64,000 nucleotides of DNA. Origin: an uncultured Desulfurococcales archaeon (lineage in GTDB: Archaea; Thermoproteota; Thermoprotei_A; EX4484-217-1). This document shows, in pieces, positions 2,990 through 54,442 of the stretch. The stretch is taken from positions 3,455 through 67,454 of the forward strand of contig CAZGLL010000004.1 of assembly GCA_964526225.1 (NCBI GenBank). The letters are read 5' to 3'. Under the pieces are notes generated by a model, which did not search any database, was not told the DNA's origin, and saw only the letters and a program-made list of their open reading frames with translations. Position numbers and translations under genes: made by a program. Positions within the stretch are counted from its first letter, which is position 1. The number at the start of each line of letters is the position of its first letter.

Positions 2990-3006
2990 TTCTCACACCC
3001 CACCTC

Positions 3007-5744: not shown

Positions 5745-5812
5745 TTTTAAGTTAAAAAGGTTTTTTTGAATCCTACTCTATAACAACACATGTCCCCCAT
5801 AGGGGTTAAACT

Positions 5813-8824: not shown

Positions 8825-8843
8825 ATAGTGGAGTTGTATTTTA

Positions 8844-10708: not shown

Positions 10709-10725
10709 GCTACTCCAACCCTATT

Positions 10726-12306: not shown

Positions 12307-12356
12307 TCACGATATATCCTATGACTATCGAAAACTACTAGTTTATTTTATTTTCC

Positions 12357-13142: not shown

Positions 13143-13222
13143 CTAGACACCCTTCAACCGAGAATACATCAGCTAAACTATTTAAGAGGTTTTATAGAAT
13201 TACCCTAAAAGGGCAAGCATCC

Positions 13223-14665: not shown

Positions 14666-14673
14666 ACTATAGT

Positions 14674-15843: not shown

Positions 15844-16486
15844 TATTTTTAGAACCCTTTTAGATCTAGGCTTCTCCGAAGACACTTTCTCAGAGGTAAT
15901 TGCTGTAACAAGGTTTGAAAATATGTGGAACTGTTCCCCACTTGGTGTAAAACTTAATTCAGAGAACAAAACATTGCACTTCTATGTTTATGAAGGAGCA
16001 AGAATACTTAGCTTCCTTAGTAAACGAAACCTATTTACGCTAAATGTTGTTAACGAGTATTCGGCTTTTTTAAATTGCATTTTCAAAAGAAATATTGAAA
16101 ATGAAATACGAAAAATAACCAATACATTGGGATATTTGAGAATAGCTGATGCTTATATTGTATGTGAAAATAGCTTACCTATAAAGGTTAGTAAAGATAA
16201 GTACTTGGTCAATGCGTTTGCTAAAGAAATAGTTATTCTTAGAAACAAGCCTAGAGCATTTAATAGGGTATTGCCAGCAGTAATCGAAGCATTAATATGC
16301 TACACAAAGATTAAACCTTATAGTAAAGTGTATGGTTTCTCATCAGTATTGGAGCTTCTGGAAAGAATAAGGTACTGTAAAGATATAGTGGATCATGCGA
16401 CATCGAATTCTGAAGCTAAAAGAGCGATTGATTTCATTTATGAGGAAGCAGTTAAGCTTGCAAATAACCTAAGGGAGGATAGATAA
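15833..16486 (+). CDS. Hypothetical protein
   Basis: 217 aa. It overlaps the previous gene by 11 nt and ends 3 nt before the CitG-like gene, indicating an operon. No motif was recognised. Confidence 0.35.
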   Translation: MKNDIFRTLLDLGFSEDTFSEVIAVTRFENMWNCSPLGVKLNSENKTLHFYVYEGARILSFLSKRNLFTLNVVNEYSAFLNCIFKRNIENEIRKITNTLGYLRIADAYIVCENSLPIKVSKDKYLVNAFAKEIVILRNKPRAFNRVLPAVIEALICYTKIKPYSKVYGFSSVLELLERIRYCKDIVDHATSNSEAKRAIDFIYEEAVKLANNLREDR

Positions 16487-16489
16487 TAC

Positions 16490-17437
16490 ATGTACATGAG
16501 CACCATAGAGCGGCTATTAACATCTTCAGTAGCCGCTCTAATACTTGAAGTTGTAGCTACACCTAAACCTGGGAACGTACATAGGTACCATAGTTATGAA
16601 GATATGGGATTAGAGCATTTCATAGTTTCATCTTCGGCATCAATATGGTGTTTTCGCAAGCTCCTAATAGCCACATTAAATAGTGGCTTACGTAGGGAAA
16701 CTTATGTTCCAGGTATTGGTGAAACAATACTGTGTTGTGTGAGGAACTCTAAAAAGTGGCATAGAGGAGGAAATGTAAACCTAGGTACTTCAACAATACT
16801 TTCAATATTATTACCCTCAATACTACTTACTGAAATAATTCATAACAAAGTGATCATGGAGGACCTTTCATTTACAGCTAAAAGTGTTGTTAAAAACACC
16901 ACTGTTGATGATGCTGTAAAATACTATGAAGCAATAAGAACTGCTTCTCCAAGATATTTAGGTAGAGTAAATAATGCTCCAATACCTGACGTTTACGATG
17001 AAAATTTTGAACATAAAATAAGAAGTAATAAAGTCACATTATACGATGTTTTAAAGTATGCATCATCCGAAGATATAGTTTCTAGAACTTGCGTTAACGG
17101 GCTAAAGGAAATCATCGAAGGCTATAACTATTTAAAAACGTTCTTCAGAAGGTATGGTGATATAAATAATGCAATAGTTCTTACCTATCTTAAACTTCTA
17201 AGTAAGTATGATGATTTCATAGTTTTAAGAAAGCATGGAAGAAAAGTAAGCTCATATGTGAAGAATAGAGCTTCCGAAATCGTTAAGTTAATAGAGGAGG
17301 ACTTCGATAGAGGCTTTAGTGCACTTAAACGGTTCGATAATGAACTTTTCATTAGAAAAATTAATCCGGGAAGCATCGCTGATATAACAGCGGTATCAAT
17401 AACTTTGGCATTATTCATGAATGAAGTAAAGGTGTAA
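16490..17437 (+). CDS. CitG/MdcB-family protein (triphosphoribosyl-dephospho-CoA synthase homolog)
   Basis: 315 aa. The N-terminal ATPKPGNVHR matches the CitG (L)TPKPGLVD signature. Confidence 0.6.
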   Translation: MYMSTIERLLTSSVAALILEVVATPKPGNVHRYHSYEDMGLEHFIVSSSASIWCFRKLLIATLNSGLRRETYVPGIGETILCCVRNSKKWHRGGNVNLGTSTILSILLPSILLTEIIHNKVIMEDLSFTAKSVVKNTTVDDAVKYYEAIRTASPRYLGRVNNAPIPDVYDENFEHKIRSNKVTLYDVLKYASSEDIVSRTCVNGLKEIIEGYNYLKTFFRRYGDINNAIVLTYLKLLSKYDDFIVLRKHGRKVSSYVKNRASEIVKLIEEDFDRGFSALKRFDNELFIRKINPGSIADITAVSITLALFMNEVKV

Positions 17438-17454
17438 GGTGGGGTTTAGATTAA

Positions 17455-18537
17455 TTGAATATTAGAGCTATAACGTTAATGGTAGGAGAGATATATGGAA
17501 AAGATATTCATGAAGCAGAAAGCATAGTGGAAAACGTTGTTTCGAAATTTATAGTGCTATTGGATGAGTTAAAGAAAAAATTTAAAGTATGGACAATAAG
17601 GCTTTCTTTACCATATGTAAACCCCAATATAAAGGATGTTGAAAAGTACGCTAGCGTATTTGAGAATATTGCGGAAAAGTATTCAATAGATTTTGTTTCA
17701 TCACTTCACTTTAGATCAAATGATAGTAGAATATGGAGCATACCAGGTGCTTTACTTAATAATGAGAAAACCTTTGGAAGCATTGTATTGAAAGGATACG
17801 ATGATTTATTACCTATTGCTAAAATATTTGAAAACCTTAACGAAGATAATGGATATAAATTAGTGGCTATTTGGGGAGAAACGTTAACACCATACTTTCC
17901 AGCGTCAAGAGCTCCAATAGGTTCAAACGGGATAACATATACACCATTTATTGTTGAAGAATATTTAGCATTTAAAGATGTTGAACATGCTGAAGAAAAA
18001 ATTGCCACTAAACTCTTCCAAGTAAACTCCCAAATTGAAAATTTAGCGGAAAAATACAGTCTTAAATTCTTTGGTGTAGACGTTTCACCCAGTCCATGGA
18101 TGGATATAAGTGTTGCTAAAGTTATAGAACGTCTTGGAGGAGTACGTTTTGGAGAATACGGAACTCTATATGGGGTGTGGTTGTTAAGCAAGTCTATCAG
18201 CAATATTACGTTAAAATTACAGAGTAAAACAACAGGTTTCAATGAGATAATGCTTCCGGTTGCTGAAGATAATGTGTTAAAGGAGAGAGCTATTGAGGGA
18301 ACATATAGTGTAAAAGATTTAGTTCAATACTCTTTCGCATGCGTTTATGGTTTGGACATGGTTCCTATAGCTAAACCTGTAGGATACCGAAAAATAATGA
18401 GAATACTTTACGATTTAAAAGTTGCAAGCGAAGTTAAAAAGAAACCTGTAGGTTTTAGAATAATCCCAGTAAACGCAGAACCTGGCTCAATTATTGACCT
18501 TGGATTTTTCGGCCATACTCCAGTGTTCAAACTTTAG
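17455..18537 (+). CDS. Hypothetical protein, last gene of the CitG-like operon
   Basis: 360 aa with coding-like composition. The 178-aa antisense ORF at 17706..18242 is Ser/Leu-rich and is rejected. Confidence 0.4.
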   Translation: MNIRAITLMVGEIYGKDIHEAESIVENVVSKFIVLLDELKKKFKVWTIRLSLPYVNPNIKDVEKYASVFENIAEKYSIDFVSSLHFRSNDSRIWSIPGALLNNEKTFGSIVLKGYDDLLPIAKIFENLNEDNGYKLVAIWGETLTPYFPASRAPIGSNGITYTPFIVEEYLAFKDVEHAEEKIATKLFQVNSQIENLAEKYSLKFFGVDVSPSPWMDISVAKVIERLGGVRFGEYGTLYGVWLLSKSISNITLKLQSKTTGFNEIMLPVAEDNVLKERAIEGTYSVKDLVQYSFACVYGLDMVPIAKPVGYRKIMRILYDLKVASEVKKKPVGFRIIPVNAEPGSIIDLGFFGHTPVFKL

Positions 18538-41354: not shown

Positions 41355-42542
41355 TTGAGACTGGAAATTCCTAGGTATCTTGAAAGGTTTGGTGCGGTTA
41401 AAATATACGACGTGCAAAGAGTGATAGAGATTGATGGTGGAGCATCTAAGGAACATAGTGAGGTTTTTGTTTTAAGATTCACTAATGCCGAACTTGGAGA
41501 AGTAGAATCTAACATGGCAATAGTTGTTCCTGTTAAAAATGAGAATCCTAAAGTTCTTGAGGGAGTAATAAGCGGAATCCCTCATGACGTACTTGTCATT
41601 GTCGTTTCTAATTCTACAAGAGAACCCATAGATAGGTACCAAATAGAGTTAGATACGCTCTTAAACCATTATAGGTTCTCCAGAAGACCCATGGTTATTG
41701 TCCATCAGAAAGATCCAGCATGGGCCGAAGCGCTAAGGAAAGTAGGTTATTATGACATTTTAGATAGTAGCAGCGAAGCGGTTAGAGACGGTAAGGGAGA
41801 AGGTATGATTCAAGGGCTAATTTTAGCAAAAGCATTAGGTAGAAAGTATGTAGGTTTCGTAGATTCAGATAACTACATTCCAGGAGCAGTATATGAGTAC
41901 GTCAAAATCTACGGGGCAGCTTTTCTATCTTCGAGAACAGACTACGTAATGGTAAGAATAAGGTGGCCTTATAAAACAAAGTTTAGCGGTAGGGGATTCT
42001 ACTTTAGAAGAAGAGGCAGAGTCTCTGAGATAACGAATAGATACATGAATCTCCTAATAGGGAGGCTAACACATTTCGAAACAGACATTGTTAAAACAGC
42101 AAATTCAGGAGATCACGCAATGAGTATTAAGTTAGCTGAGGAACTTGCTTTTGCAGAAGGATTCGCTATAGAACCGTATGAGCTCATGTTCATATTTGAG
42201 GAATTCGGAGGTTTCATTAAGAAAATAGCTAATAAGGAAGTAGCTTCTAAAGGTATTGAAATTTTTCAAATAGAACCTAGAAATCCACATGTACATGAGG
42301 AAAGAGGAACAGAACATATTAATGAAATGCTTCTTAAATCCCTTTCAACAATATATCATAGCAAACTATGTGGTAAGGAACTTAAAAAACAAATACTTAA
42401 TGAACTCAGAATTAGAGGTATTCTGAAGGAAAATGAGGAACCACCAAAAATAAGGACTATAAGGCCTATTAAAAACGTGGACGTTAAAAAGGTCTTAGAA
42501 ATTTTAGGGGGAAAAGCGGAATCATTGATATTGGCTGAGTAG
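41355..42542 (+). CDS. mpgS: Mannosyl-3-phosphoglycerate synthase (GT55 family)
   Basis: 395 aa. It shows strong collinear similarity to archaeal MpgS as recalled from memory (VVPVKNE, GKGEGM, YVGFVDSDNYIPGAVYEYVK, GRVSEITNRYMNLL, GIEIFQIEPRNPHVHEERGTEHINEMLL, TIYHSKL, ENEEPPK). Confidence 0.8.
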   Translation: MRLEIPRYLERFGAVKIYDVQRVIEIDGGASKEHSEVFVLRFTNAELGEVESNMAIVVPVKNENPKVLEGVISGIPHDVLVIVVSNSTREPIDRYQIELDTLLNHYRFSRRPMVIVHQKDPAWAEALRKVGYYDILDSSSEAVRDGKGEGMIQGLILAKALGRKYVGFVDSDNYIPGAVYEYVKIYGAAFLSSRTDYVMVRIRWPYKTKFSGRGFYFRRRGRVSEITNRYMNLLIGRLTHFETDIVKTANSGDHAMSIKLAEELAFAEGFAIEPYELMFIFEEFGGFIKKIANKEVASKGIEIFQIEPRNPHVHEERGTEHINEMLLKSLSTIYHSKLCGKELKKQILNELRIRGILKENEEPPKIRTIRPIKNVDVKKVLEILGGKAESLILAE

Positions 42543-42655: not shown

Positions 42656-43147
42656 ATGAAGCTAACAGTAGCTTCTGCTCATCTACCAACAGCACCTAAG
42701 GTTCAAAGAGTATTAGTACATGATAGTTCTAAATGTACTGCTTGCTGCACCTGTATGATAGCTTGTGCTATGAGGCATTTTGGTATAGCCGATCTTAAAA
42801 AGTCATTTATAAAGATAGTATTTAACGAGAAACTTCAAGCTTTCGAAGCAGTATATTGTCATCACTGCGATAATCCTTTCTGTATGAATATATGTCCTGC
42901 AGATGCTATTTCGAAAGACGAAGTTACAGGTATTGTTAGAATAAATCCGCTTATTTGTGTAGGTTGTGGTTCATGCAACTATGCTTGTCCTTTAGGTGTT
43001 CCAAGGAGAGATCCTCAAATGCATGTTGCTGTAAAGTGTGATTTATGCGAAGGAGATCCGGAATGTGTTAAACAATGTCCTACTCAAGCTTTAAGATATG
43101 TTCCCAGAGAAGAAGCATACTCATTCTTAACTGAGAAATACAGGTGA
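42656..43147 (+). CDS. CooF/HycB-like polyferredoxin (4x[4Fe-4S])
   Basis: 163 aa with four CxxCxxCxxxCP-type motifs (CTACCTCMIAC, CHHCDNPFCMNICP, CVGCGSCNYACP, CDLCEGDPECVKQCP). Confidence 0.8.
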   Translation: MKLTVASAHLPTAPKVQRVLVHDSSKCTACCTCMIACAMRHFGIADLKKSFIKIVFNEKLQAFEAVYCHHCDNPFCMNICPADAISKDEVTGIVRINPLICVGCGSCNYACPLGVPRRDPQMHVAVKCDLCEGDPECVKQCPTQALRYVPREEAYSFLTEKYR

Positions 43148-43153
43148 AACGCT

Positions 43154-44299
43154 ATGTTTTTCGAAGTAGTTGCAACACTTGGAATAATAACTTTAGCTAT
43201 TCCCGCATTCTTAGCTTTAGTAGAGGACGATATTAAAAGAATAATTGCCTATTCAACGGTTAGCCAAATGGGTTACATTGTTTATAGTATAGGCATAGGA
43301 ACAGTTTTAGGCGTTGCCGGCGCTTTATTCCACGTAATAAACCATGCATTATTAAAGTCAATGCTATTCTTAGCGGCTGGAGCTGTGATCTACGCTACCG
43401 GAACAAGAAATATTAGAGAACTTGGCGGCCTAGCATATAAAATGCCAGTTACTGCTACGGCTATTCTGATAGGAGGTCTTTCAGTAGCTGGACTACCTCC
43501 CTTAAACGGTTTCGCAAGTAAGCTCTTAATTTACGAAGCTGGATTTGAAAGAGCATTTCACGACCCAACATTTATAGGTAGGCTTTACCTACTTTACACG
43601 GTAATCGCGATTTTCATCGGCGCAGTAACGCTTCTCTACTTTATGAGGCTCTTCTATTCTGTATTTCTCGGTATGCCCTCTAAACTCGCTGAAAAAGCGA
43701 AGGACCCGCCTGTTGCTATGAAGACATCACTAATATTGTTAATGGTGATTTCTATAATATTTGGAATATTCCCGCAAATTCCTGTAGGTTTCATAGTGAA
43801 CCCTGCTTTAGCATACATGTTTCCGAAGGCTGGTTTACCCTTAAGTATTTCATATTTTGGCTACAGCACTAACGTAGGCTTCTACACAGCAACATTATTA
43901 ACAATAGTTTTACTAGTAACAGCCAGTATATCGTATGCAATATACGTTTCAGGAAAGAAACTATATGAAAAAGTTACCATAACGCCACCTGTTGTAAGAG
44001 AGTTACATGAGTTCAAATACGAGGTATTTACAGGTGGAGAATATGGAGGCGAACTTTTGCCTCTTGAAGAATTGAAGATTACACCTGAAGAGTTCAACTT
44101 TGCTCTTAAGGAATCATTTTCTTCACTATACAGTTTCTCTAAAGAAGGAGGTATTGAAGGGGTTATTTCGTACATGTTCCATGAGTTTCTAAGTAAAGTA
44201 AGAGAATTAGACATTATAAGATATGTTAAAGTTAGCTCATACGTTCTCGTTTACATATTATTCTTCGTAATAATGCTTTTCCTCGCAACAGCTATGTAG
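43154..44299 (+). CDS. Truncated NuoL/M/N-EchA/MbhH-like antiporter-type membrane subunit (H'-like)
   Basis: 381 aa. It begins at the conserved mid-protein KRIIAYSTVSQMGYIV motif of proton-pumping antiporter-like subunits. The N-terminal ~220 aa of the full-length family are absent. Confidence 0.7.
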   Translation: MFFEVVATLGIITLAIPAFLALVEDDIKRIIAYSTVSQMGYIVYSIGIGTVLGVAGALFHVINHALLKSMLFLAAGAVIYATGTRNIRELGGLAYKMPVTATAILIGGLSVAGLPPLNGFASKLLIYEAGFERAFHDPTFIGRLYLLYTVIAIFIGAVTLLYFMRLFYSVFLGMPSKLAEKAKDPPVAMKTSLILLMVISIIFGIFPQIPVGFIVNPALAYMFPKAGLPLSISYFGYSTNVGFYTATLLTIVLLVTASISYAIYVSGKKLYEKVTITPPVVRELHEFKYEVFTGGEYGGELLPLEELKITPEEFNFALKESFSSLYSFSKEGGIEGVISYMFHEFLSKVRELDIIRYVKVSSYVLVYILFFVIMLFLATAM

Positions 44300-44311
44300 G
44301 GTGTAAAGCTT

Positions 44312-44941
44312 ATGGTGCCAAAGGACGTACCTGAAAAATTAGGAGAAATGGTGGTTGAAGTTTATTCGACAGGACCTAAAAGATACATTCTAACGCTTAG
44401 CAGTTACGATAAAATACGTGAGGCTGCGAAAATACTTTTTGATGAAGGCTTCAGAATATCTACAATAACAACTTTAGACCGTGGCTTCTACTTTGAACTA
44501 CTTTACCACTTCGTTAAAAAGAACGTTATTGCATCAATTAAAATACTTGTTCCGAAAGGTGAAAGTAAAGTACCTTCAATAACACCTATCATTCCGGGAG
44601 CTAACTGGTTAGAGAGAGAAGTTAGAGATCTCTTCGGAATAGAGTTTGTAGATCATCCTGAACCTAGAAGGGTTGTTTTACCTCCTGATTGGAAGGATGA
44701 GCCACCGCTTAGAAAACCTGTTGCTCCAGAGTTGCCAGAAACTTACGCTAACTACTTTATGTCGCTAGCAACTAAGGCAGCGCTTGCATCCTTAAGCGGC
44801 TTAGCTAAGAGAAGAAGGAAACAAATGGGATTACCTGAAGTTGTAACGCCAGTTCATGAATCTAAAGATGTAATTGATGAAGTAAAGAAGATTTCGAAGG
44901 AGCTAAAAATTGATAGAAAAGTTCCCATAGGAGGGAAGTGA
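44312..44941 (+). CDS. NuoC/EchD-like hydrogenase subunit
   Basis: 209 aa with the NuoC signature ANWLEREVRDLFGIEFVDHP. Confidence 0.8.
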   Translation: MVPKDVPEKLGEMVVEVYSTGPKRYILTLSSYDKIREAAKILFDEGFRISTITTLDRGFYFELLYHFVKKNVIASIKILVPKGESKVPSITPIIPGANWLEREVRDLFGIEFVDHPEPRRVVLPPDWKDEPPLRKPVAPELPETYANYFMSLATKAALASLSGLAKRRRKQMGLPEVVTPVHESKDVIDEVKKISKELKIDRKVPIGGK

Positions 44942-45837
44942 CCGATATGGCGCTAAAATACATATTCTATCCGGGATGCTTCATACCCGCAATGCTACCA
45001 CATGTAGAATACAGTATTAGATACGTCTTAAACAAATTAAATGTTGAACTACAGGAAATACCCGATCTTTCATGTTGTCCACCTAAAATTACTAGTGTAG
45101 GAGACTTTAAAGCATGGCTAACTATTTCGGCTAGAAACCTTGCATTAGCGAGTAAACATGGGTTAGACTTACTTACTCCATGTAATGGATGTTTCGAATC
45201 ATATTTTGAAGCCAAACACTTCATAGAACATAGACCGGACTTAGCGAAAGACCCATTAGACATCTTGAAGAAGCTAGGTTTACCAACAAAAATAGAAAGC
45301 AACGTTAAACACTTCGTAGAAGTAGTGTATAAGGATGTTGGACTGAATAGGTTGTCCGAAGAAATAGTTAAACCACTTAAGGGGCTTAGAGTCGCTGTAC
45401 ATTATGGATGCCACCTTTTCGTAACATCACCTGGAGGAGATATTTGGGAAAAACCGAGAATGATGGATGAAATCCTAAGGACTCTCGGAGCTGAGATAGT
45501 TAGAGACGGTTTAGAGAGAATATGCTGCGGCTTCGTTATGTCAACGATCGATGATACGAAAGCTGTTCTCGAAAGATCCGAAATTAGGTTAAGAAGCGTT
45601 AAGTCATTAGATGTAGATTGTCTTGTAACTCCATGTCCACAATGCCTTATAAGATTTGAGTACAGTCAAATAAAGCTTAGGTCGTTGAAGAATGTAAGAT
45701 ACGATTTGCCGGTGGTTCATTTAGCGGAACTTATAGCGATAGCTTTCGGACTTGACCCATTAAAGATGAAATTTGATAGACTACATAGATCCCCTGTTAA
45801 ACCTGTTTTCGAAAAGCTAGTGAAGGAGGGAGGATAG
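44938..45837 (+). CDS. HdrB/GlcF-like protein with two CCG cysteine-rich domains
   Basis: 299 aa with two Cys-x(n)-CC-x(n)-CxxC modules (PGC...SCCPPK...CNGC and YGCHLF...ICCGF...CPQC). It overlaps the neighbouring hydrogenase subunit genes on both sides by 4 nt. Confidence 0.6.
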   Translation: MTDMALKYIFYPGCFIPAMLPHVEYSIRYVLNKLNVELQEIPDLSCCPPKITSVGDFKAWLTISARNLALASKHGLDLLTPCNGCFESYFEAKHFIEHRPDLAKDPLDILKKLGLPTKIESNVKHFVEVVYKDVGLNRLSEEIVKPLKGLRVAVHYGCHLFVTSPGGDIWEKPRMMDEILRTLGAEIVRDGLERICCGFVMSTIDDTKAVLERSEIRLRSVKSLDVDCLVTPCPQCLIRFEYSQIKLRSLKNVRYDLPVVHLAELIAIAFGLDPLKMKFDRLHRSPVKPVFEKLVKEGG

Positions 45838-45839
45838 TT

Positions 45840-47012
45840 TTGGAGAAAGTTGAAGGTAAAATATGTTCCATACCTATAGGGCCATACCATCCAGCTTTGG
45901 AGGAAATAGCTTTCTACAAGGTTTATGTTGAAGGAGAGAGAATAGTTGATGCTCTTATTAAACCTGGTTTTAACCATAGGGGTATTGAGAAATTAGCTAT
46001 GCAGAGAAGTTACCGTAGAAATGTTCAGCTTTTCGAAAGAGTATGTGGAATATGTTCTGACGCTCATACAACAGCTTACTGTGTTGCAGTTGAGAATTGC
46101 TTAAAGATAAATGTACCTAAGAGAGCACAGTATATTAGAGTAATAGAGCATGAAGCAAATAGAATCCATAGCCACCTATTATGGTTTGGTATTGCAATGC
46201 ATATTATAGGTTTCGACACATTATTCATGCACTCATGGGCTATTAGAGAAGCAATAATGGATGTTGTAGAAACTCTCACCGGGAATAGAGTAAACTATTC
46301 AGTAAACACTATTGGAGGCGTTAGAAGAGACATTACACCTGAGCTAGCAAAATATGTTGAAGAGAAGCTTAAAATCGTCGAGAAAGGAACACTTTACTTA
46401 ATGAAAGCTGTTAAAGAAGACAAAACAATAAAGGCTAGAACATCTGAAGTAGGTATTTTAACGAAGGAGGAAGCAAGGAAATATTGCGTAGTAGGTCCTA
46501 CAGCTAGAGCATCAGGAATAGATGAAGATATTAGGAAAGACGACCCATATATTAACTTTGAAGATTTCGAATTCGAAGTTTGCGTAGAGGACGCATGCGA
46601 CGTATACGGGAGAATTATGGTTAGGCTAAGAGAAACATTAGAATCTATTAAGATAGTAAGGCAGGCCCTTAAGAACCTACCTGAAGGCAAATTAATAGCT
46701 GATTTACCGTATCCTTTCCCGAGTGAAGACGTTGGAAGAGTTGAAGCCCCTAGAGGAGAACTAATATATTATGTTAAATCGAATTATACGAACATCCCGG
46801 AAAGAGTTAAAGTGAGAACACCTACTTTCGTTAACCTCCCAGCGGTTAAGCCTATGCTCATCGGAAATAAGCTTGCAGATGCACCACAAATACTTGCAAG
46901 TATTGACCCGTGTTTATCATGTAATGACAGGCTTGTTATCGTAGATTTGAGAAGTGGTCGTGAAAAAACAGTTCTTCTACAAGACTTCATTAGAGGGAGG
47001 GTGAAACTGTAA
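45840..47012 (+). CDS. Group-4 [NiFe]-hydrogenase large subunit (NuoD/EchE-like)
   Basis: 390 aa with the L1 motif RVCGICSDAH and the L2 motif DPCLSCNDR. A ~30-aa C-terminal extension follows L2. Confidence 0.88.
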   Translation: MEKVEGKICSIPIGPYHPALEEIAFYKVYVEGERIVDALIKPGFNHRGIEKLAMQRSYRRNVQLFERVCGICSDAHTTAYCVAVENCLKINVPKRAQYIRVIEHEANRIHSHLLWFGIAMHIIGFDTLFMHSWAIREAIMDVVETLTGNRVNYSVNTIGGVRRDITPELAKYVEEKLKIVEKGTLYLMKAVKEDKTIKARTSEVGILTKEEARKYCVVGPTARASGIDEDIRKDDPYINFEDFEFEVCVEDACDVYGRIMVRLRETLESIKIVRQALKNLPEGKLIADLPYPFPSEDVGRVEAPRGELIYYVKSNYTNIPERVKVRTPTFVNLPAVKPMLIGNKLADAPQILASIDPCLSCNDRLVIVDLRSGREKTVLLQDFIRGRVKL

Positions 47013-47959
47013 TGTATATTGTTCCGTTACTTATTGCCTTAGCTGAAATAATAATATATCCGGGATTAATATTTTCAATACTATTTGGAGGAATAATTGT
47101 TTGGTTATATAGAAAAGTTAGAGCTAGACTTCAAGGAAGGAGGGGTCCTCCATGGTATCAGACATATGCTGACGTATTTAAGCTCCTAATTAAGGAAACA
47201 ATAATTCCATTGAGAGCATGGAAGGTTGGGTTCATTGCTGCACCAATGATTTCATTAGCTGCTCTCTTTGTAGCAGTACTTTTACTTCCATTCTTCGGCA
47301 AAGAATCAGCGCTAGGGTTCCTAGGTGATGCAATAGTTTTACTATACTTGCTGACAATACCTACTTTTGCAATAGCATTTGGAGGTATGGCTTCAGGTAG
47401 CCCATATGGTATTGTTGGTTCGGGGAGGGAGACTTCACTACTTGTATGGTATGAGTTGCCACTATGGCTTTCAGCGGCAACAGTTTTCGCTCTTGCAAAC
47501 TCTATTTCCATAAGCGGAATAATTGAAGAACAAGCTCTTCATGGGCCATTCGCCATAAGACTACCTTTAGCTTTCATAGCTTTCCTAATAGCAGCTCAAG
47601 CAAAGTTAGCTAAAAGACCTTTCGATATACCGCATGCTGAAACAGAAATTGTAGCAGGACCCTACACAGAATATTCTGGTTCATTAAGGGCTCTATTCGA
47701 GCTATGCGAAGTGTTTAAGTGGTTAGCGGTTTCAGCTTTAACTGCAACTCTATTTCTAGGATGGCCTGTGATAGGTAATCCTGTAGCGGATGCACTAATA
47801 TTCATAGTTAAAATAGTATTTTTCGCGCTCATATTCGCATTTATTGACATAATTAATCCTAGATTACGTATTGAACAAGCAGGGTGGCCTCTTTGGAAGA
47901 TTGCTGCAGCACTTGCACTAATAGATACTATAAGAGTCTGTATGGGGTTGGTGATTTGA
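47012..47959 (+). CDS. NuoH/EchB-like membrane subunit
   Basis: 315 aa polytopic. The conserved loop is RPFDIPHAETEIVAGPYTEYSG. Confidence 0.88.
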   Translation: MYIVPLLIALAEIIIYPGLIFSILFGGIIVWLYRKVRARLQGRRGPPWYQTYADVFKLLIKETIIPLRAWKVGFIAAPMISLAALFVAVLLLPFFGKESALGFLGDAIVLLYLLTIPTFAIAFGGMASGSPYGIVGSGRETSLLVWYELPLWLSAATVFALANSISISGIIEEQALHGPFAIRLPLAFIAFLIAAQAKLAKRPFDIPHAETEIVAGPYTEYSGSLRALFELCEVFKWLAVSALTATLFLGWPVIGNPVADALIFIVKIVFFALIFAFIDIINPRLRIEQAGWPLWKIAAALALIDTIRVCMGLVI

Positions 47960-47960
47960 A

Positions 47961-48518
47961 ATGAAATCAAGTATAGTTAAGGAAGCTCTAAAGTATTTCG
48001 TAAACCCCGTTACTGAGGCTTTTCCAGCTGCTAAACCATATTTTCCGAAGAAATATCGTGGACCACCAGTTTATGATCAAGATAAATGTATGGGCTGTAC
48101 TGCATGCGCCCATGTTTGCCCCGCCGACGCTATAACAGTGATTGAAAAGGATGGTAAAAGAACTCTTGAGGTATGGTATGGTAAATGCACTTTCTGTGCG
48201 AGATGTGAAGAATCATGCCCTGCAGATGCGATACACTTAATGGAAGAATTTGGTGTCCCATCTGAAGACAAACTTGCTTTCAAATCAACAGTTACCCACG
48301 ACATGGTTAAGTGTAAGTTATGCGGTAAACCATTTATAACTATTAGACATGCTGAATGGATAAAGAAGAACCTACTTGAGAAAATGGGTGATGTTGTAGG
48401 GTCTGAGGAAATAGACTTCTTCCTAACAGTATGTGAAGACTGTAGACATAAAGTAGAGAACATTCCGGAATTTAGAAAACTCCTCATTAGAGCGGCTATT
48501 AAAGGTGGAAAAGTATGA
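47961..48518 (+). CDS. NuoI/EchF-like 2x[4Fe-4S] ferredoxin subunit
   Basis: 185 aa with CMGCTACAHVCP and CTFCARCEESCP. Confidence 0.88.
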   Translation: MKSSIVKEALKYFVNPVTEAFPAAKPYFPKKYRGPPVYDQDKCMGCTACAHVCPADAITVIEKDGKRTLEVWYGKCTFCARCEESCPADAIHLMEEFGVPSEDKLAFKSTVTHDMVKCKLCGKPFITIRHAEWIKKNLLEKMGDVVGSEEIDFFLTVCEDCRHKVENIPEFRKLLIRAAIKGGKV

Positions 48519-48982
48519 GTTCGAAAAAATGTTTCCTATGTTCCCTAGCTAAATGGGCACGTAGAAAATCCGTATGGCTATATCACGCACCAGCGGGAGG
48601 TCTCTGCAACGGCTGCGATATTGAAATAGCTGCTGCAATAACGCCTAGATATGATGTTGAAAGGTTCGGTATACTTTTAGCTCCAAGCCCTCGACATGCC
48701 GACGTAATACTAGTTGCTGGTCAAATGACAAAGCACTCTAAGGAAAGACTTCTAAGGGTGTATCAGCAAGTTCCTGAACCTAAAGCTGTAGTAGCTATAG
48801 GTTCATGCGCTATTTCAGGTAATGTATTTACAACAGAAAACTATCCCGTAGCCGGAACGGTGGATCAAATAATTCCTGTCGACGTTTACGTTCCCGGATG
48901 TCCTCCTAAACCTGAGGCAATAATTCTCGGAGTAGTTAAAGCTATAGAGAAACTAGAGAAAAGAACAGCAGAGCCCACCTAG
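48515..48982 (+). CDS. NuoB/EchC-like [NiFe]-hydrogenase small subunit
   Basis: 155 aa with the proximal-cluster Cys pattern CNGCDIE...GSCAISG...PGCPPKPE. Confidence 0.88.
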   Translation: MSSKKCFLCSLAKWARRKSVWLYHAPAGGLCNGCDIEIAAAITPRYDVERFGILLAPSPRHADVILVAGQMTKHSKERLLRVYQQVPEPKAVVAIGSCAISGNVFTTENYPVAGTVDQIIPVDVYVPGCPPKPEAIILGVVKAIEKLEKRTAEPT

Positions 48983-50157
48983 GGTTTTAAACCTAGAATT
49001 CTAGCTAATTCCTTAACTTTTCCTCCGCCTCCAAACTTGGCCCAAACAGCACATGTTCCCTCAGACGAGACCATACATGGACCGTAGGGTGTATTTGGAG
49101 TACAAGTTTTCATGAAGAACGGACAATCTGTAGGAACAGCCTTACCCAACGTTACATCTCCGCACATACATCCCGGAGGTAAATCCATGGATTTAGATAC
49201 TTTAACATCATATTCTGAATGGACATCAATGCTTTTGTAGGGATTTCTTAGTTCTAAACCGCTTTTAGGAATAACACCTATACCTCTCCAGTGAGCATCA
49301 ACGATGTTAAATGCTTTTTCAACATACTTTTGAGCAACAATGTTACCTTCCCAACTATCAACCCTCGAGTACTCATTGAATATTCTAGGTTTTCCCTCAA
49401 CAATTTGCTTAAGTATTTCAAGAACAGCTAAGACTACATCTAATGGTTCAAAGCCTGCTACAACAGCAGGTAATCCGTACTCTTCAGGTAAGAATTTCCA
49501 TGCCTTCGCGCCAGTAATTGCGGTAACATGTCCTGGAGCAATTATTCCGTTTAGTGGAATATCTGGCTGATTTAGAACGTAATGTACTGCTGGTACAGTT
49601 AATCTATAGGCGATAAGTAGTTTTAGATTGCTAGGTATAGTTCCTAATACTACATGGCTAGCAACTGTTGGTTGGGTTGTTTCGAAACCTACTGCTAAGA
49701 AAACATGTGTTCTACTAGGGTTCTTTTTAGCAATTTTTAACGCGTCAAGGAAACCGTAAACTATTCTAATGTCTCCTCCTAAACTTCTAGCTTCAGCTAG
49801 GCTCATACTTGTTCCAGGAACCTTATACATGTCTCCATAAGTTAGCAATGTGACTTCATAGTTTAACGCTAACTCTATAGATTCGTCAATAACCTTCGTT
49901 GGAGCTATACATACCGGGCATCCGGGTCCCGCAATGAGTTCTAATTTTTCCGGCATAAGGCTTCTTAAGCCGTAATACGTAATTGTATGTTCATGTGTTC
50001 CGCAAACATGCATTATCTTTATCTTATCTTCACCAGTCTTCCTTAGTGCTAAAGGAGCTAGCTTATGTATTTTCCTAACTGCCTCTCTAAGAAGCTCTGA
50101 TTCTCTAAACATCCTAACTATTTCCTTAAGACCCTCATGTAGATCACGAGTATTCAT
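48979..50157 (-). CDS. hypD: Hydrogenase maturation factor HypD
   Basis: 392 aa with MHVCGTHEH, GPGCPVC and the C-terminal CPFFMKTCTPNTPYGPCMVSSEGTC cluster. Confidence 0.95.
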   Translation of the reverse strand: MNTRDLHEGLKEIVRMFRESELLREAVRKIHKLAPLALRKTGEDKIKIMHVCGTHEHTITYYGLRSLMPEKLELIAGPGCPVCIAPTKVIDESIELALNYEVTLLTYGDMYKVPGTSMSLAEARSLGGDIRIVYGFLDALKIAKKNPSRTHVFLAVGFETTQPTVASHVVLGTIPSNLKLLIAYRLTVPAVHYVLNQPDIPLNGIIAPGHVTAITGAKAWKFLPEEYGLPAVVAGFEPLDVVLAVLEILKQIVEGKPRIFNEYSRVDSWEGNIVAQKYVEKAFNIVDAHWRGIGVIPKSGLELRNPYKSIDVHSEYDVKVSKSMDLPPGCMCGDVTLGKAVPTDCPFFMKTCTPNTPYGPCMVSSEGTCAVWAKFGGGGKVKELARILGLKP

Positions 50158-50315
50158 TCAAATTATTCCCTCATACCATAATTTCCTTATAGCTTAGAGA
50201 TTTGAGTTTCTGTAAAATATATTTCCAACTAACAATATACTATATGTGCTGACTTAGGATTTACATAAAACGTGCTCCCAGTACGTGGTGTTTAAAGGGG
50301 AAGGAGGCTTACTAA

Positions 50316-51347
50316 ATGGTTAGGGTTTCAAAAGTAACCCTAGCTCATGGTGCTGGCGGTAGGGAAACATCCGAAATAATAGAGAAGTTTTTCATAAAGA
50401 AATTCAATATTAAAAAAGTTTCTTCAGGATTCGGTTTAGATGAATTAGAAGATTCATCAACAATCCCCCTTCCCGACGGGAACTATTTAGCGGTAACTGT
50501 TGATAGCTATACTGTCAGCCCAATATTCTTCCCTGGAGGGAATATAGGCAAATTAGCTGCAACGGGGACCCTAAACGACCTAGCTGTTATGGGCGCTGAA
50601 CCCATAGCAACAATGGACAGCATAGTTGTTGAAGAAGGATTTGAAATGGAGCTTCTAGAGGAAATAGTGACTTCAATACGTGATGTTCTTGAAAAATACA
50701 ATGTTGCGTTAATAGGCGGAGACTTTAAGGTAATGCCTAAAGGACAGCTTGACAAAATAGTAATAACAATGACAGGTATAGGAATAATACCTAAGAACAG
50801 GTTAATTTCAGACTACAATATCAAACCAGGCGACAAAATAGTAATAACAGGAACTATAGGGGAACATGGAGCAGCAATTTTAGCCGCACAAACAGGAATA
50901 GGTGTTGAAGATTCAAGCCTTTTTAGCGATTGCACTCCAATAATTGAGGCTATGGAAATAGCATTTAAAATAGGAGGTATACGTGCAGCAAAAGATCCTA
51001 CGAGAGGAGGATTAGCTATGGCCCTTAATGAATGGGCTAAAAAATCTAAGCTAACAATCGTTGTTAAAGAGGAAAACATACCGTTAAGAGAAAGCGTTAA
51101 AGCTTACTGCGAAATGCTAGGTGTTGATCCACTTACACTTGCATCTGAAGGCAGGGCGTTAATTGCTGTTTCACCGGAGAAAGCAGAGGAATTAGTGGAT
51201 ACGCTAAGAAGTAAGGGATATAAGGATGCCGCAGTAATAGGTGAAGCTAAGAAGGGTAGAGAAGGATATGTGCTCTTAGAAACGATAACTGGAGGGTTAA
51301 GAATAATCGAAACTCCCATTGGAGAAATAGTTCCAAGAATATGTTAG
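50316..51347 (+). CDS. hypE: Hydrogenase maturation factor HypE
   Basis: 343 aa with an AIR-synthase-like fold, N-terminal TLAHGAGG and a C-terminal PRIC cysteine. Confidence 0.95.
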   Translation: MVRVSKVTLAHGAGGRETSEIIEKFFIKKFNIKKVSSGFGLDELEDSSTIPLPDGNYLAVTVDSYTVSPIFFPGGNIGKLAATGTLNDLAVMGAEPIATMDSIVVEEGFEMELLEEIVTSIRDVLEKYNVALIGGDFKVMPKGQLDKIVITMTGIGIIPKNRLISDYNIKPGDKIVITGTIGEHGAAILAAQTGIGVEDSSLFSDCTPIIEAMEIAFKIGGIRAAKDPTRGGLAMALNEWAKKSKLTIVVKEENIPLRESVKAYCEMLGVDPLTLASEGRALIAVSPEKAEELVDTLRSKGYKDAAVIGEAKKGREGYVLLETITGGLRIIETPIGEIVPRIC

Positions 51348-51763
51348 GGTTAAACATTATGTCTAAAGAAAAAAGACTTTATAGGTCATCAGAAGACGAA
51401 ATAATCTGCGGCTTATGCGGTGGCTTAGGAGAGTACTTTAACATTGACCCGACAATTATAAGAATAGTTTTTGTACTCTTCTTCATAATAAATCCGGTTG
51501 CGGCAGTGCTTTTCTACATTTTAGCTTGCGCCATTATACCCAAGAAACCTACTGAGCAAGCTGGTGAAGCAAGACCTATAACTAAGAAAACAACGCAACG
51601 TGAACAAGGATTAATAATTCTAGGGTTAATGCTGATACTGGTGGGAGTACTTGTTTTCCCGGAAGTAAAGCTTGTTTTGAGAAGTGTTTTGAGAGGATTA
51701 GTTATAGCAATAGGGTTGCTAATGATTCTTCTTGTTCTCTTCAGGAAAAGCTTTAAACCTTAA
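51341..51763 (+). CDS. PspC-domain membrane protein
   Basis: 140 aa with a PspC-domain N-terminus YRSSEDEIICGLCGGLGEYFNIDPTIIRIVFVLF followed by TM helices. It overlaps the hypE stop. Confidence 0.6.
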   Translation: MLGLNIMSKEKRLYRSSEDEIICGLCGGLGEYFNIDPTIIRIVFVLFFIINPVAAVLFYILACAIIPKKPTEQAGEARPITKKTTQREQGLIILGLMLILVGVLVFPEVKLVLRSVLRGLVIAIGLLMILLVLFRKSFKP

Positions 51764-51977
51764 GTGCCTCTAAAACTTCTTTCCAAGCTTCAATAGTTTT
51801 TTCGGCTTCTTCACGACTCAGTTTAGAAATTATTGCTCCAGCATGAACTATAACGTAATCTCCGGGCTTAACATCCGGTACAAGGAGTCTATCAACTTCT
51901 CTTTTAACTCCTCCAAAGTCTACTATTGCAGTCATATCTTTTACTTCAATAACGACACCAGGTATTCCTAAGCACAT
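51753..51977 (-). CDS. hypC: Hydrogenase maturation factor HypC
   Basis: The start is trimmed to the MCLGIPG... Met so that the essential Cys is residue 2 (74 aa). The ORF-track version begins 3 codons upstream. Confidence 0.88.
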   Translation of the reverse strand: MCLGIPGVVIEVKDMTAIVDFGGVKREVDRLLVPDVKPGDYVIVHAGAIISKLSREEAEKTIEAWKEVLEALKV

Positions 51978-52102
51978 TTTCAACACTTCTTCTCAATCCT
52001 TTCTCGAATAAAATATTTAGGTTATCTACGTAGTGCTCTATAGAGCATATGCAACTACCAACTTATATTAGCTTACTTCAGTGTCAGACAAGTGGAGTGC
52101 TT

Positions 52103-54442
52103 ATGGGAGAAGTTGTTGCTTTAAAACTTAGAGTTTCAGGAGTAGTTCAGGGAGTAGGGTTTAGGCCATTCGTATATAGGATAGCAGTTAAAAACGGAAT
52201 TAAAGGGTACGTTAAAAACCTAGGAGGTAGTGAAGTAGAAATTCATGTTGAAGGTTCCTTGTTAAACATATTGAACTTTATAAGAGATCTTACTGTAAAG
52301 AAGCCTCCTCCAGCCGAAATAGAAATGCTCGAGATAGAAGAGTCTAAACCCAAAGTTTTCAAAGAATTCTCTATTTTGAAAAGCGGTAAAAATCCTAAAA
52401 TGTTCTCGATGATACCTCCAGATATAGGCATATGTGATGACTGCTTAAGTGAAATTCTAGATAAAAATTCTAGATGGTACATGTATCCATTTAATAGTTG
52501 TGCTTGGTGCGGCCCAAGATTCTCAATGTTAGAGAGTATACCTTACGATAGAGAAAACACTTCAATGAGAGATTTCCCACTATGCGAAGAGTGCTTAAAT
52601 GAATACAGAGACCCGGGGAACATTAGAAGATTCCATGCGCAGGGAATAAGCTGTCCCAAATGTGGACCAAAGGTTTGGTTAGTTGATAATTCAGGAGAAC
52701 TTGTTGAAACAGAGGATCCTATAAGAACCGCTGCTAAACTCGTAGATGAGGGATACATTGTAGCAATAAAGGGTTTAGGAGGATTTCACATAGCTGCTCT
52801 AGCTACAGATGATGAAGTAGTTCTTACATTACGTGAGAGAAAAAGGAGACCACAGAAACCGTTCGCTCTCATGGCGTTAAATATTGACGTTATTAGGAAA
52901 ATAGCTTATGTACCTAGGGAAGCAGAGGAGCTGCTACTTTCTCCTCAAAAACCAATAGTTCTCTTACCTAAGAAGGAATACACTCCGGTTTCCAAATATG
53001 TAGCTCCAGGACTAAGTACAGTAGGTGTTATGCTACCATATACTGGCTTACACTACATTCTACTAATGAACACTAAAGACAAGTACTTAATAATGACAAG
53101 CGGTAATCCTAAAGGAAAACCTATGTGCATAACTAATAAGTGCGCTCTAAATAGGCTTTCAAAATATGTTGACTACATTCTACTACATAATAGGAGAATA
53201 ATTAACAGAGTTGACGATAGTGTTGTGAGATTAACACTAGGTAAACCCATGTTTCTAAGAAGAAGTAGAGGTTATGCTCCTAAATGGTTCACATTACCTA
53301 TTGAAGCCAAAAACCCCATAGTTGCCTTTGGAGCAGAATTAGCAACTGCAGGAGCCATTTTCATTAAAAACAGGGCTATACTGACCCAATACATAGGCGA
53401 TGTCGACGATTACGAAACATTAGAGTTCATGGATGAAGCGTTGAAGTTCCTATGTAGAACCTATAGAATTAACCTTAGCGAAGCGGTTTACGTTTCCGAT
53501 CTCCACCCATACTATGCTACAACAAGACTTGCTGAAGAATATGCTGACAAGTACAATTCAGTACATTTAAGAGTACAGCATCACCATGCACATATAGTCT
53601 CAGTAATGGCTGAAAACTACATGAAACCTGATGAGGAAGTAGTCGGTATAGCCATTGATGGTGTAGGTTACGGAATAGATGGTAAAATATGGGGTGGAGA
53701 GATCATTATTGCATCATATAGGGGATTCAGAAGGTTTGGACACTTAAAATATCAGCTCATGCCAGGTGGGGATTTAGCTACAAAATACCCTCTAAGAATG
53801 CTTATCGGAATACTTTACTCCATATTTGATGAAGAAGAAATACTTAGATTCCTTAACAAAACAAACTTAATCGATAAATTAAAGTATGGTGCAAGAGAAC
53901 TGAGAGCAATAATGTATCAGTTAAAGTCCAGAACAGCTCCTGAAACGTCAAGTACAGGTAGGTTTTTAGATGCAGTAGCTGCTCTTTTAGGAATATGTTT
54001 TGAAAGGACATATGAAGGAGAACCTGCAATGAAGCTAGAGGCTTATGCTAAGAAGCCTGAAGGAAATGGTGAATTAGAGGCTAAAGTTGTGTATGAGAAA
54101 GGTGAGTACGTTATTGACACTTCAGATTTAATGTTAAAAGTAATAGAGAAATTAGAGGATGGTGTTGAAAGAAAAACATTGGCTTATCAAGCACAGTACG
54201 CATTAGGTAAAGCACTAGGTAAAGTCGCTGTAGAAGCGATAAGAGCGTATGATGTGAAGCCATTAATATTAGTGAGCGGTGGAGCAGCAGTAAATGATAT
54301 AATACTTAAGGCAATAACAAATGTTGCTAAAGAAAATGATGTAGAAGTTTATGTCAATAGAAAAGTTCCTCCCGGAGATGGAGGAATAGCTTTAGGGCAA
54401 GTAGCTATAGCAGCCTATAGTTTTACTTATGAAGAATCTTAG
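52103..54442 (+). CDS. hypF: [NiFe]-hydrogenase maturation carbamoyltransferase HypF
   Basis: It has an acylphosphatase domain (VSGVVQGVGFRPFVYRIA), two Zn-finger pairs (CDDC...CAWCGPRF, CEEC...CPKCGP), a YrdC-like domain and a Kae1-like domain. The start is set at MGEVVALKL (52103). The ORF track begins at 52049. Confidence 0.93.
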   Translation: MGEVVALKLRVSGVVQGVGFRPFVYRIAVKNGIKGYVKNLGGSEVEIHVEGSLLNILNFIRDLTVKKPPPAEIEMLEIEESKPKVFKEFSILKSGKNPKMFSMIPPDIGICDDCLSEILDKNSRWYMYPFNSCAWCGPRFSMLESIPYDRENTSMRDFPLCEECLNEYRDPGNIRRFHAQGISCPKCGPKVWLVDNSGELVETEDPIRTAAKLVDEGYIVAIKGLGGFHIAALATDDEVVLTLRERKRRPQKPFALMALNIDVIRKIAYVPREAEELLLSPQKPIVLLPKKEYTPVSKYVAPGLSTVGVMLPYTGLHYILLMNTKDKYLIMTSGNPKGKPMCITNKCALNRLSKYVDYILLHNRRIINRVDDSVVRLTLGKPMFLRRSRGYAPKWFTLPIEAKNPIVAFGAELATAGAIFIKNRAILTQYIGDVDDYETLEFMDEALKFLCRTYRINLSEAVYVSDLHPYYATTRLAEEYADKYNSVHLRVQHHHAHIVSVMAENYMKPDEEVVGIAIDGVGYGIDGKIWGGEIIIASYRGFRRFGHLKYQLMPGGDLATKYPLRMLIGILYSIFDEEEILRFLNKTNLIDKLKYGARELRAIMYQLKSRTAPETSSTGRFLDAVAALLGICFERTYEGEPAMKLEAYAKKPEGNGELEAKVVYEKGEYVIDTSDLMLKVIEKLEDGVERKTLAYQAQYALGKALGKVAVEAIRAYDVKPLILVSGGAAVNDIILKAITNVAKENDVEVYVNRKVPPGDGGIALGQVAIAAYSFTYEES

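Follow-up and report, generated by a model that had tools for sequence, protein, structure and literature searches.

The locus described here raises the question of what a heterodisulfide reductase (Hdr)-like protein contributes to a membrane-type hydrogenase. It lies in a stretch of 64,000 nucleotides from an uncultured Desulfurococcales archaeon (assembly GCA_964526225.1, contig CAZGLL010000004.1, positions 3,455 to 67,454 of the forward strand), hereafter the window, in which one of the eight plus-strand genes of a group-4 [NiFe]-hydrogenase operon encodes an HdrB-like protein with two cysteine-rich CCG modules. An original prediction had suggested that this protein provides the complex with an additional redox site for either thiol/disulfide or quinone-related chemistry. 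Our analyses indicate that it is probably the catalytic HdrB-type subunit, with two non-cubane [4Fe-4S] sites, of an "Ehd-like" HdrB-associated group-4 [NiFe]-hydrogenase, and the predicted function of such a complex is most likely that of an H2:disulfide (or ferredoxin:disulfide/H+) oxidoreductase.

The open reading frame (ORF) is real, the opposite strand at the same position being crowded with stop codons, and it stands, as originally described, on the plus strand between the gene for a NuoC-like subunit (PF00329) and that for the [NiFe] large subunit (PF00346/PF00374). The reported coupling to both neighbours by 4-nt overlaps was confirmed in part only. The upstream overlap (GTGA) exists only for a start at GTG 44938, and downstream the stop codon, ending at 45837, is separated by a 2-nt gap from the TTG of the large-subunit gene at 45840. 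An ATG at 44947, whose equivalent (MALKY...) is the start residue in most close HdrB homologues, is the likelier start of hdrB on alignment evidence; a GGAGGG sequence at 44930-44935 is spaced better for this ATG than for the GTG, and the distance to the NuoC-like gene then becomes a 5-nt gap.

The product of this gene is an HdrB-type double-CCG subunit. The Pfam CCG model PF02754 matched it in two stretches (E = 4.4e-23, 81.6 bits for a cutoff of 20.6), in agreement with the original prediction of two complete modules, and the NCBIfam HdrB model TIGR03288 aligned over its full length (E = 3.4e-65, 220.2 bits). The modules read C14-x31-C46C47-x34-C82xxC85 and C158-x37-C196C197-x35-C233xxC236 (numbered from the GTG); the spacing of 34 between CC and CxxC in the first is one below the textbook range, and the ten cysteines are unchanged across 10 relatives that are 38-93% identical. 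Solved HdrB chains in the PDB aligned end to end with the protein, with E-values of up to 3.5e-58. An AlphaFold2 (AF2) model was obtained with a predicted local distance difference test score (pLDDT) of 94.1 and a predicted template modelling score of 0.92, and Foldseek matched it to HdrB chain 5odc_B (E = 3.3e-22, template modelling (TM) score 0.90, root-mean-square deviation 2.1 Å). Residues E87/H154, described as belonging to the proton path of Methanococcus maripaludis HdrB (PMC13518236), correspond to E91/H159 (GTG numbering), which do not vary within the hydrogenase-linked clade. A comparison with the homologue at locus L008 shows purifying selection on the gene, the proportions of nonsynonymous (pN) and synonymous (pS) differences being 0.118 and 0.747, respectively, with pS saturated, and its GC content (0.391) is at the same level as that of the neighbouring genes.

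A second link to heterodisulfide reductase was found in the gene directly upstream. In all HdrB-bearing loci, the NuoC-like proteins are extended by a conserved stretch of about 75-85 residues, and a profile of the whole NuoC-like family, when searched against the PDB, matched HdrC (5odc_C, E = 2.5e-11) through profile positions 141-218, which are this extension. With an arm-only profile (A3) searched against the entire PDB, matches were limited to HdrC chains (5odc_C, 3.3e-13; 8rvu_c, 6.8e-13; 8rvv_C, 8.7e-13; 9sfi_E, 2e-10; 7bkb_C, 1e-4), the alignment spanning HdrC residues 106-183 of 184; no Pfam model covers this stretch. No cysteine or ferredoxin motif precedes the arm in the NuoC-like subunit of the window. 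Given the profile matches and the missing ferredoxin motifs upstream, this subunit is, as judged by homology, a fusion of NuoC with the HdrC C-terminal arm in which the HdrC ferredoxin domain has been lost. The usual HdrBC partner, an HdrC with a 2x[4Fe-4S] ferredoxin domain and an arm, is thus represented in the operon by the arm alone.

The arm profile was then applied to all ORFs of 74 loci and of the window. The arm was present in every NuoC-like ORF covered by sequence of the HdrB-bearing hydrogenase loci, with no ferredoxin motif upstream of it, and also in canonical HdrC ORFs, which contain two CxxCxxCxxxC motifs and lie directly 5' of hdrB in 12 non-hydrogenase loci; it was never present in the HdrB-less hydrogenase loci of this set. 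In hydrogenase and canonical loci alike, hdrB always follows directly on the gene that carries the arm, so that the order in the operon mirrors the hdrC-hdrB order. Members of the Desulfurococcales clade have an arm shortened by seven residues, without the terminal GYDW motif. The HdrC segment equivalent to the arm presumably packs against HdrB in the 5ODC structure. HdrB and HdrC are described as forming the catalytic dimer (PMC13518236). No explicit description of a NuoC-HdrC fusion was found in our literature search, which did not extend to Borrel et al. 2019.

The distribution of the operon was analyzed by scanning GTDB genomes and then comparing synteny with tblastn, with a second entry from the large subunit. 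The exact HdrB protein was found on two further metagenome contigs (L001 and L002) in an identical context, and the order NuoC, CCG protein, large subunit is kept with homologues at 57%, 42%, and 39% identity and in more than 20 loci that belong to Desulfurococcales/Thermoproteota, Bathyarchaeia, Nezhaarchaeota, Asgard archaea, and Hadarchaeota. These include membrane-type loci (L003-L005, L007-L010, L027, L067-L069, L071) and soluble-looking ones (L006, L011-L017, L049, L066), across which HdrB identity ranges from 36 to 84%. The membrane-type architecture (Fer4_11 protein, antiporter, NuoC, HdrB, large subunit, NuoH, NuoI, NuoB) was observed in metagenome-assembled genomes (MAGs) of Desulfurococcales/Thermoproteota (L003, L007-L010, L027; a variant form in L004/L005). 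The loci whose large subunits are the closest outside the near clade, from Asgardarchaeia (56%), Bathyarchaeia (55%), a metagenome contig (55%), and Nezhaarchaeota (51%), also show this architecture, with full-length antiporters of 649-854 aa. The soluble-looking architecture consists of five genes (Fer4_11 protein, NuoC::HdrC-arm, HdrB, large subunit, and a NuoB::NuoI fusion), with NuoH and the antiporter absent from the cluster, and occurs in MAGs of Hadarchaeota (L012-L016, L049, L066) and Hodarchaeaceae (L011, L017) and in a metagenome contig (L006); it would be a membrane-free derivative of a group-4 hydrogenase, possibly like the Drh of Methanocellales.

A gene for a HycB-like Fer4_11 protein was found in every HdrB-bearing cluster whose corresponding end was covered by sequence. 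HdrB was missing from four relatives whose large subunits show 50-53% identity (Omnitrophota L070, Nitrososphaeria L072, L073, and Bathyarchaeota L074); all four have a short NuoC (157-162 amino acids) and a short NuoI (113-149 amino acids), and no Fer4_11 gene was called in any of them. HdrB thus co-varies with the HdrC arm, the HycB-like ferredoxin, and the HycF-like subunit, all three being absent from the four HdrB-less relatives. The Ni-Fe ligands are kept in all large subunits compared, and in a rough neighbour-joining tree, in which the published Ehd, Ehe, and Drh references were not included, the membrane-type HdrB-bearing large subunits group together. Among at least 21 relatives found in a search with the NuoC-like protein, the closest named one, a Desulfurococcales archaeon of Guaymas type, was "Desulfurococcales archaeon ex4484_217_2". 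In one Hadarchaeota MAG, the HdrB-bearing cluster is followed about 4 kb downstream by a second NuoB-NuoC-large subunit cluster (L015:12149-13992), which has a large subunit 34% identical and lacks HdrB. The CCG gene is therefore a conserved and selected part of the hydrogenase operon, and an extra redox site on the complex, as first proposed, is the natural reading of such a subunit.

The assignment of the host operon to group-4 hydrogenases was also borne out. Its eight genes (Table 1) are separated by 1-12 nt or overlap slightly throughout, both Ni-Fe-binding CxxC motifs of the large subunit are present (RVCGICSDAH and DPCLSCNDR), and NuoB-, NuoC-, NuoI-, and NuoH-like partners accompany them; with these motifs retained in all members and hyp genes adjacent, the hydrogenase is predicted to be functional. 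The first gene encodes a HycB-like protein with four CxxCxxCxxxC-type motifs and hence four predicted [4Fe-4S] clusters, which matched the Fe-S subunit of aldehyde oxidoreductase (8c0z_C, 1.9e-27) and HycB of formate hydrogenlyase (FHL; 7z0s_B, 7.5e-20). The NuoI-like protein aligned end to end with HycF (7z0s_F, chain residues 12-170 with query residues 15-173, E = 7.8e-21), while MbhN aligned with its N-terminal part only. These HycF and HycB matches lend support to a wire of the FHL type. Pfam annotation detected no HdrC-like gene in the operon, and neither the operon nor its flanks contained a molybdopterin or FdhF gene.

Table 1. Features of the hydrogenase operon and of the adjoining maturation genes (positions in the window).
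Feature	Position	Strand	Evidence and remarks
HycB-like ferredoxin, first operon gene	42656..43147	+	Pfam Fer4_11, E = 5.8e-17
Truncated antiporter-like membrane subunit, 381 aa	43154..44299	+	Pfam Proton_antipo_M, profile positions 149-277 only
NuoC-like subunit (residues 1-~135) with HdrC-type C-terminal arm	44312..44941	+	Complex1_30kDa (PF00329), E = 1.5e-27, residues 33-136
HdrC C-terminal arm (residues 135-209 of the NuoC-like subunit)	44714..44938	+	Arm-only profile A3
HdrB-like double-CCG subunit	44938..45837	+	299 aa from GTG; likelier start ATG 44947; Pfam, NCBIfam, PDB, AF2/Foldseek
CCG module 1 (in HdrB-like gene)	~44977-45192	+	
CCG module 2 (in HdrB-like gene)	~45409-45645	+	
Group-4 [NiFe] large subunit, NuoD-like	45840..47012	+	PF00346, E = 2.4e-70; PF00374, E = 8.9e-18
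NuoH/HycD-like membrane subunit	47012..47959	+	Pfam NADHdh (PF00146), E = 8.8e-73
HycF-like 2x[4Fe-4S] subunit (NuoI-like), C-terminal CxxC...CxxC extension	47961..48518	+	NCBIfam PRK12387 (FHL iron-sulfur subunit), E = 3.6e-34
NuoB-like small subunit, proximal [4Fe-4S]	48515..48982	+	Oxidored_q6 (PF01058), E = 3.9e-33
Maturation genes: hypD (-), hypE (+), PspC-domain gene (+), hypC (-, ~51753-51986), hypF (+)	48979..54442	mixed	Pfam of identical contig L001; HypF domains

The complex would thus combine an Ech/FHL-type core with a disulfide-reductase head. In the model that we propose, the HdrC-type arm fused to the NuoC-like subunit would hold HdrB on the peripheral arm of the complex, and the HycB-like four-cluster ferredoxin would stand in functionally for the lost HdrC ferredoxin domain. 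Electrons could pass from the NiFe site to the NuoB cluster, the HycF-like clusters, the HycB-like clusters, and finally HdrB, by a wire analogous to that of FHL with HdrB in the position of FdhF. The standard potential of the H2 couple (E0') is -414 mV and those of disulfide couples are roughly -140 to -330 mV, and the oxidation of H2 coupled to disulfide reduction is therefore exergonic; the reaction H2 + R-S-S-R' -> 2 thiols would be thermodynamically favoured in this direction and might be coupled to ion movement via the NuoH-like and truncated antiporter-like subunits. Reduced ferredoxin could also feed the same wire, choosing protons or the disulfide as acceptor.

The antiporter-like subunit of this lineage corresponds to the C-terminal half of an MbhH/HycC/NuoL-type protein, without transmembrane helices 1-7. 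It matched MbhH (6cfw_H) at residues 286-484 of 510 and HycC at residues 264-475 of 608, and is equivalent to residues 283-600 of the 854-aa orthologue of Nezhaarchaeota (L069). A stop codon directly upstream bounds the ORF, and no N-terminal half was found elsewhere in the window. A form of 381-384 aa is kept across the Desulfurococcales clade with 59-80% identity and is subject to purifying selection (pN 0.124, pS 0.662); the antiporter subunits of the orthologous operons of Bathyarchaeia, Nezhaarchaeota, and Asgardarchaeia are 649-854 aa long. In a 42%-identity relative (GCA_964651085.1, L004:1369-2516), tblastn matched the antiporter in two pieces with no called gene, which suggests a frameshift or an assembly error.

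Several observations speak against this model or restrict it. The TIGR03288 score of 220.2 bits is below the equivalog cutoff of 345 bits that defines the HdrB of the coenzyme B-coenzyme M heterodisulfide (CoM-S-S-CoB) reductase, and the same substrate as for methanogen HdrB is therefore not supported: the window protein is by its score a member of the HdrB family but is not assignable as a CoM-S-S-CoB enzyme. In methanogens, HdrC contributes residues 79-98 to the lining of the active site and proton path of HdrB (PMC13518236); these residues fall outside the arm kept in the NuoC-like subunit. When the NuoC-like subunit and HdrB were modelled with AF2 as a single fused chain, HdrB was predicted confidently and the arm reached a pLDDT of 32-65 only, MAFFT having stretched the NuoC homologues over the full chain. 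The absence of the N-terminal half of the antiporter-like subunit makes ion pumping uncertain in this lineage. Moreover, no candidate disulfide carrier is encoded beside the operon in the window, and hydrogenases with HdrB are known as a class from genomic and transcript data alone.

The nature of the disulfide may be considered in this light. It is possible, although we regard it as rather unlikely, that the complex is a respiratory H2:disulfide oxidoreductase acting on a disulfide other than CoM-S-S-CoB in non-methanogenic hyperthermophiles; under that reading, a protein-bound lipoyl/GcvH-type dithiolane or an organic polysulfide or persulfide may tentatively be named as candidate substrates. 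No further Hdr, CoM/CoB, mcr, or sulfur genes were seen in the 64-kb window. Directly 5' of the orthologous operon in Nezhaarchaeota (GCA_026413605.1, L069:1-3286), genes for a lipoate-protein ligase, a radical-SAM enzyme, GcvH, and a pyridine-nucleotide-disulfide oxidoreductase were observed, and this neighbourhood hints at a lipoyl-protein disulfide as the substrate; GcvH lies beside the operon in this locus only among the HdrB-plus-hydrogenase loci compared. A similar link was considered for the window and rejected, since its gcvH (5813-6238) belongs to an ordinary glycine cleavage cluster located 37 kb from the operon.

Among the other explanations, the one that fares best is that the enzyme is mainly an H2-evolving, ferredoxin-oxidising hydrogenase of a fermenter, HdrB being an alternative exit (ferredoxin:disulfide oxidoreductase) when a disulfide or sulfane acceptor is present, in a manner that would resemble the Mbh/Mbs switch of Thermococcales. 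The nearest solved relatives of the membrane and Fe-S subunits (Mbh, Mbs, and FHL) evolve H2 or reduce sulfane sulfur, the HycB-like subunit could serve as a docking site for ferredoxin, and both directions were weighed by the authors of the Culexarchaeia study (PMC9723716). However, no ferredoxin-generating oxidoreductase is encoded beside the operon in the window, and this explanation, to which we give a minor chance, differs from an H2:disulfide oxidoreductase in its physiological direction only, which is not fixed by the sequence.

It is much less probable that the CCG protein is a quinone-interacting or purely electron-relaying Fe-S subunit of the SdhE or LutA/GlcF/GlpC type with no disulfide reductase activity. 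CCG domains are known in such enzymes, and weaker matches of the protein were indeed found to SdhE, LdhH, TfrB, GlcF, and GlpC in NCBIfam and to LutA and EtfD with Foldseek, the latter two at scores well under those of HdrB. Nevertheless, HdrB is far ahead both in sequence (220 bits against 122 bits for the quinol-linked SdhE) and in fold, the HdrC arm is present, and the proton-path residues are conserved. In addition, the protein has no membrane segment capable of reaching quinone, and Pfam annotation found none of the partner genes LutB/LutC, GlcD, GlpA, or SdhA in the operon. Of the two chemistries considered in the original prediction, thiol/disulfide chemistry is thus clearly favoured by these comparisons, and quinone chemistry is disfavoured. 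Finally, a recent or decaying insertion that plays no part in the complex, a possibility that could be imagined from the way hdrB splits the usually adjacent and often fused NuoC-NuoD pair and from the truncation of the antiporter gene, is extremely improbable and was rejected, as was a pseudogene, on grounds of conservation, selection, and composition, since the position is kept in more than 20 loci of at least five archaeal lineages with 10 of 10 cysteines invariant, pN is far under pS, the GC content is like that of the neighbours, and the truncated antiporter gene is itself conserved and selected.

Other features of the locus were recorded. The large subunit bears a 26-residue C-terminal extension after DPCLSCNDR, of a kind normally cleaved off by a HycI-type endopeptidase; no HycI homologue was found within the window, and L069, L070, and L073 have one adjoining the operon. 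The PspC-domain gene is placed between hypE and hypC. Directly 5' of the operon and syntenic in L003, a mannosyl-3-phosphoglycerate synthase gene (41355-42542, plus strand, E = 8e-155) is consistent with a (hyper)thermophilic host storing compatible solutes. An AT-rich, TATA-like stretch was seen by eye upstream of 42656; sigma-70-like sites were fewer over the operon than in shuffled sequences, these promoter and terminator models being bacterial and not applicable to archaea. The rest of the window encodes glycine cleavage, pterin/tetrahydromethanopterin (H4MPT)-like biosynthesis, transporters, and Hyp proteins, and an Rfam scan of the window gave no match, hence no rRNA or tRNA by which to anchor the taxonomy, which is based on the similarity of proteins to those of Desulfurococcales MAGs. 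The glycine cleavage cluster (1418-6238) comprises gcvP1/P2 on the minus strand and gcvT and gcvH on the plus strand, with the only GcvH of the window. It is adjoined by a run of genes similar to those for archaeal pterin/H4MPT-type cofactor biosynthesis (7480-18537), with F420-ligase-like, PTPS, GTP cyclohydrolase FolE2/MptA-type, GHMP kinase, Pterin_bind+DUF4346, MptE-like, DUF763, DUF447, CitG-like, and DUF711 members.

Hydrogenases of this type connect the complex-I/Mbh core with the active site of heterodisulfide reductase, both of them ancient energy modules, and they figure in proposals on how methanogenic and respiratory bioenergetics evolved. To our knowledge, no HdrB-bearing group-4 hydrogenase has been purified so far. 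The present locus extends the type to a Desulfurococcales-like hyperthermophile in which CoM-S-S-CoB is an unlikely substrate, and it sharpens the question of which disulfide is reduced. Together, the fusion of the HdrC arm to NuoC and the strict co-variation of HdrB with the HycB-like and HycF-like subunits yield a concrete model for the attachment and wiring of the head that lends itself to testing. Both the compact operon of eight genes and the membrane-free variants with five genes in Hadarchaeota and Hodarchaeaceae would be attractive for heterologous expression. If the respiratory reading were true, it would define a "disulfide respiration" independent of methanogenesis, via an HdrC arm grafted onto NuoC.

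"HdrB-interacting" group-4 hydrogenases were grouped by Kohtz et al. 2022 (PMC9723716) into Ehd, Ehe, Drh, and Ehg, together with an "Ehd-like" cluster that includes Bathyarchaeia. The Ehd of Methanomethylicia has HdrBC and an antiporter, according to Borrel et al. 2019 as cited there; Ehe is from Culexarchaeia, Ehg from Nezhaarchaeia, and the Drh of Methanocellales has no antiporter (PMC9723716). Ehg was found to be expressed in a cultured Methanonezhaarchaeon (PMC12700198) and Drh to be up-regulated in syntrophic coculture (PMC6046458). No description of a Desulfurococcales member was found in our literature search. The operon at 42656-48982 has the gene content of the Ehd-like cluster (PMC9723716), with a co-located group-4 [NiFe]-hydrogenase, HdrB(C), and an antiporter subunit. 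As in Ehd and Ehd-like clusters, these genes form a membrane-type cluster for which coupling of H2 and disulfide to ion movement has been proposed, and the Bathyarchaeia (L068) and Nezhaarchaeota (L069) loci share the gene order of the window, with large subunits 51-55% identical. Unlike the Ehd, Ehe, and Ehg hosts, the host here is a Desulfurococcales-type hyperthermophile with no methanogenesis genes in the window and a half-length antiporter. The operon is devoid of the SdhA/CdhA/GcvH of Ehe and of the FdhA/HdrA/MvhD of Ehg, and it is by gene content that it is likened to the Ehd-like cluster. The "HdrC" named in the published clusters may be the counterpart of the NuoC::HdrC-arm fusion.

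Drh ("disulfide-reducing hydrogenase", Lyu & Lu 2015 as cited in PMC6046458 and PMC9723716) likewise combines a group-4-type hydrogenase with HdrB and, as far as these citations describe it, is antiporter-free, resembling the five-gene Hadarchaeota/Hodarchaeaceae variant, whereas the window operon retains NuoH-like and truncated antiporter-like subunits; the host of Drh is a methanogen, with CoM-S-S-CoB as the obvious substrate. The Asgard 4l/4q hydrogenases, described as having "a peripheral heterodisulfide reductase domain" (Appler et al. preprint, 10.1101/2024.07.04.601786), also unite an Mbh-like complex with an Hdr module. The Asgard locus L067 has an identical gene order and a large subunit 56% identical, but belongs to another host phylum and has a full-length antiporter of 649 aa.

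With the soluble HdrABC-MvhAGD complex of methanogens (5ODC, 8RVU, 9SFI), the window proteins share the HdrB fold, all cluster ligands, the HdrC arm, and an arm gene 5' of hdrB, the identity of HdrB being 36-38% with homologues (BLASTP) and 29-36% with solved chains (Foldseek, TM 0.90). In contrast to that complex, the operon lacks HdrA, and with it the flavin and electron bifurcation, as well as the HdrC ferredoxin domain; its hydrogenase is of the group-4 membrane type and not of group 3c, and HdrB scores below the equivalog cutoff. With E. coli FHL-1 (group 4a, 7Z0S), it shares HycB-, HycF-, HycG-, HycD-, and HycC-like subunits in a similar order and a peripheral catalytic subunit at the end of a poly-Fe-S wire. 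It differs in that HdrB takes the place of FdhF, which is attached through HycB in group 4a, in that the NuoC-like and large-subunit genes are separate with hdrB between them, and in that HycC is truncated. The concept of an HdrB-bearing group-4 hydrogenase has already been published from genomes, and the idea of a CCG subunit on such a complex is not new; the details worth recording here are the HdrC arm on NuoC, the co-variation of HdrB with the HycB- and HycF-like subunits, and the half-length antiporter.

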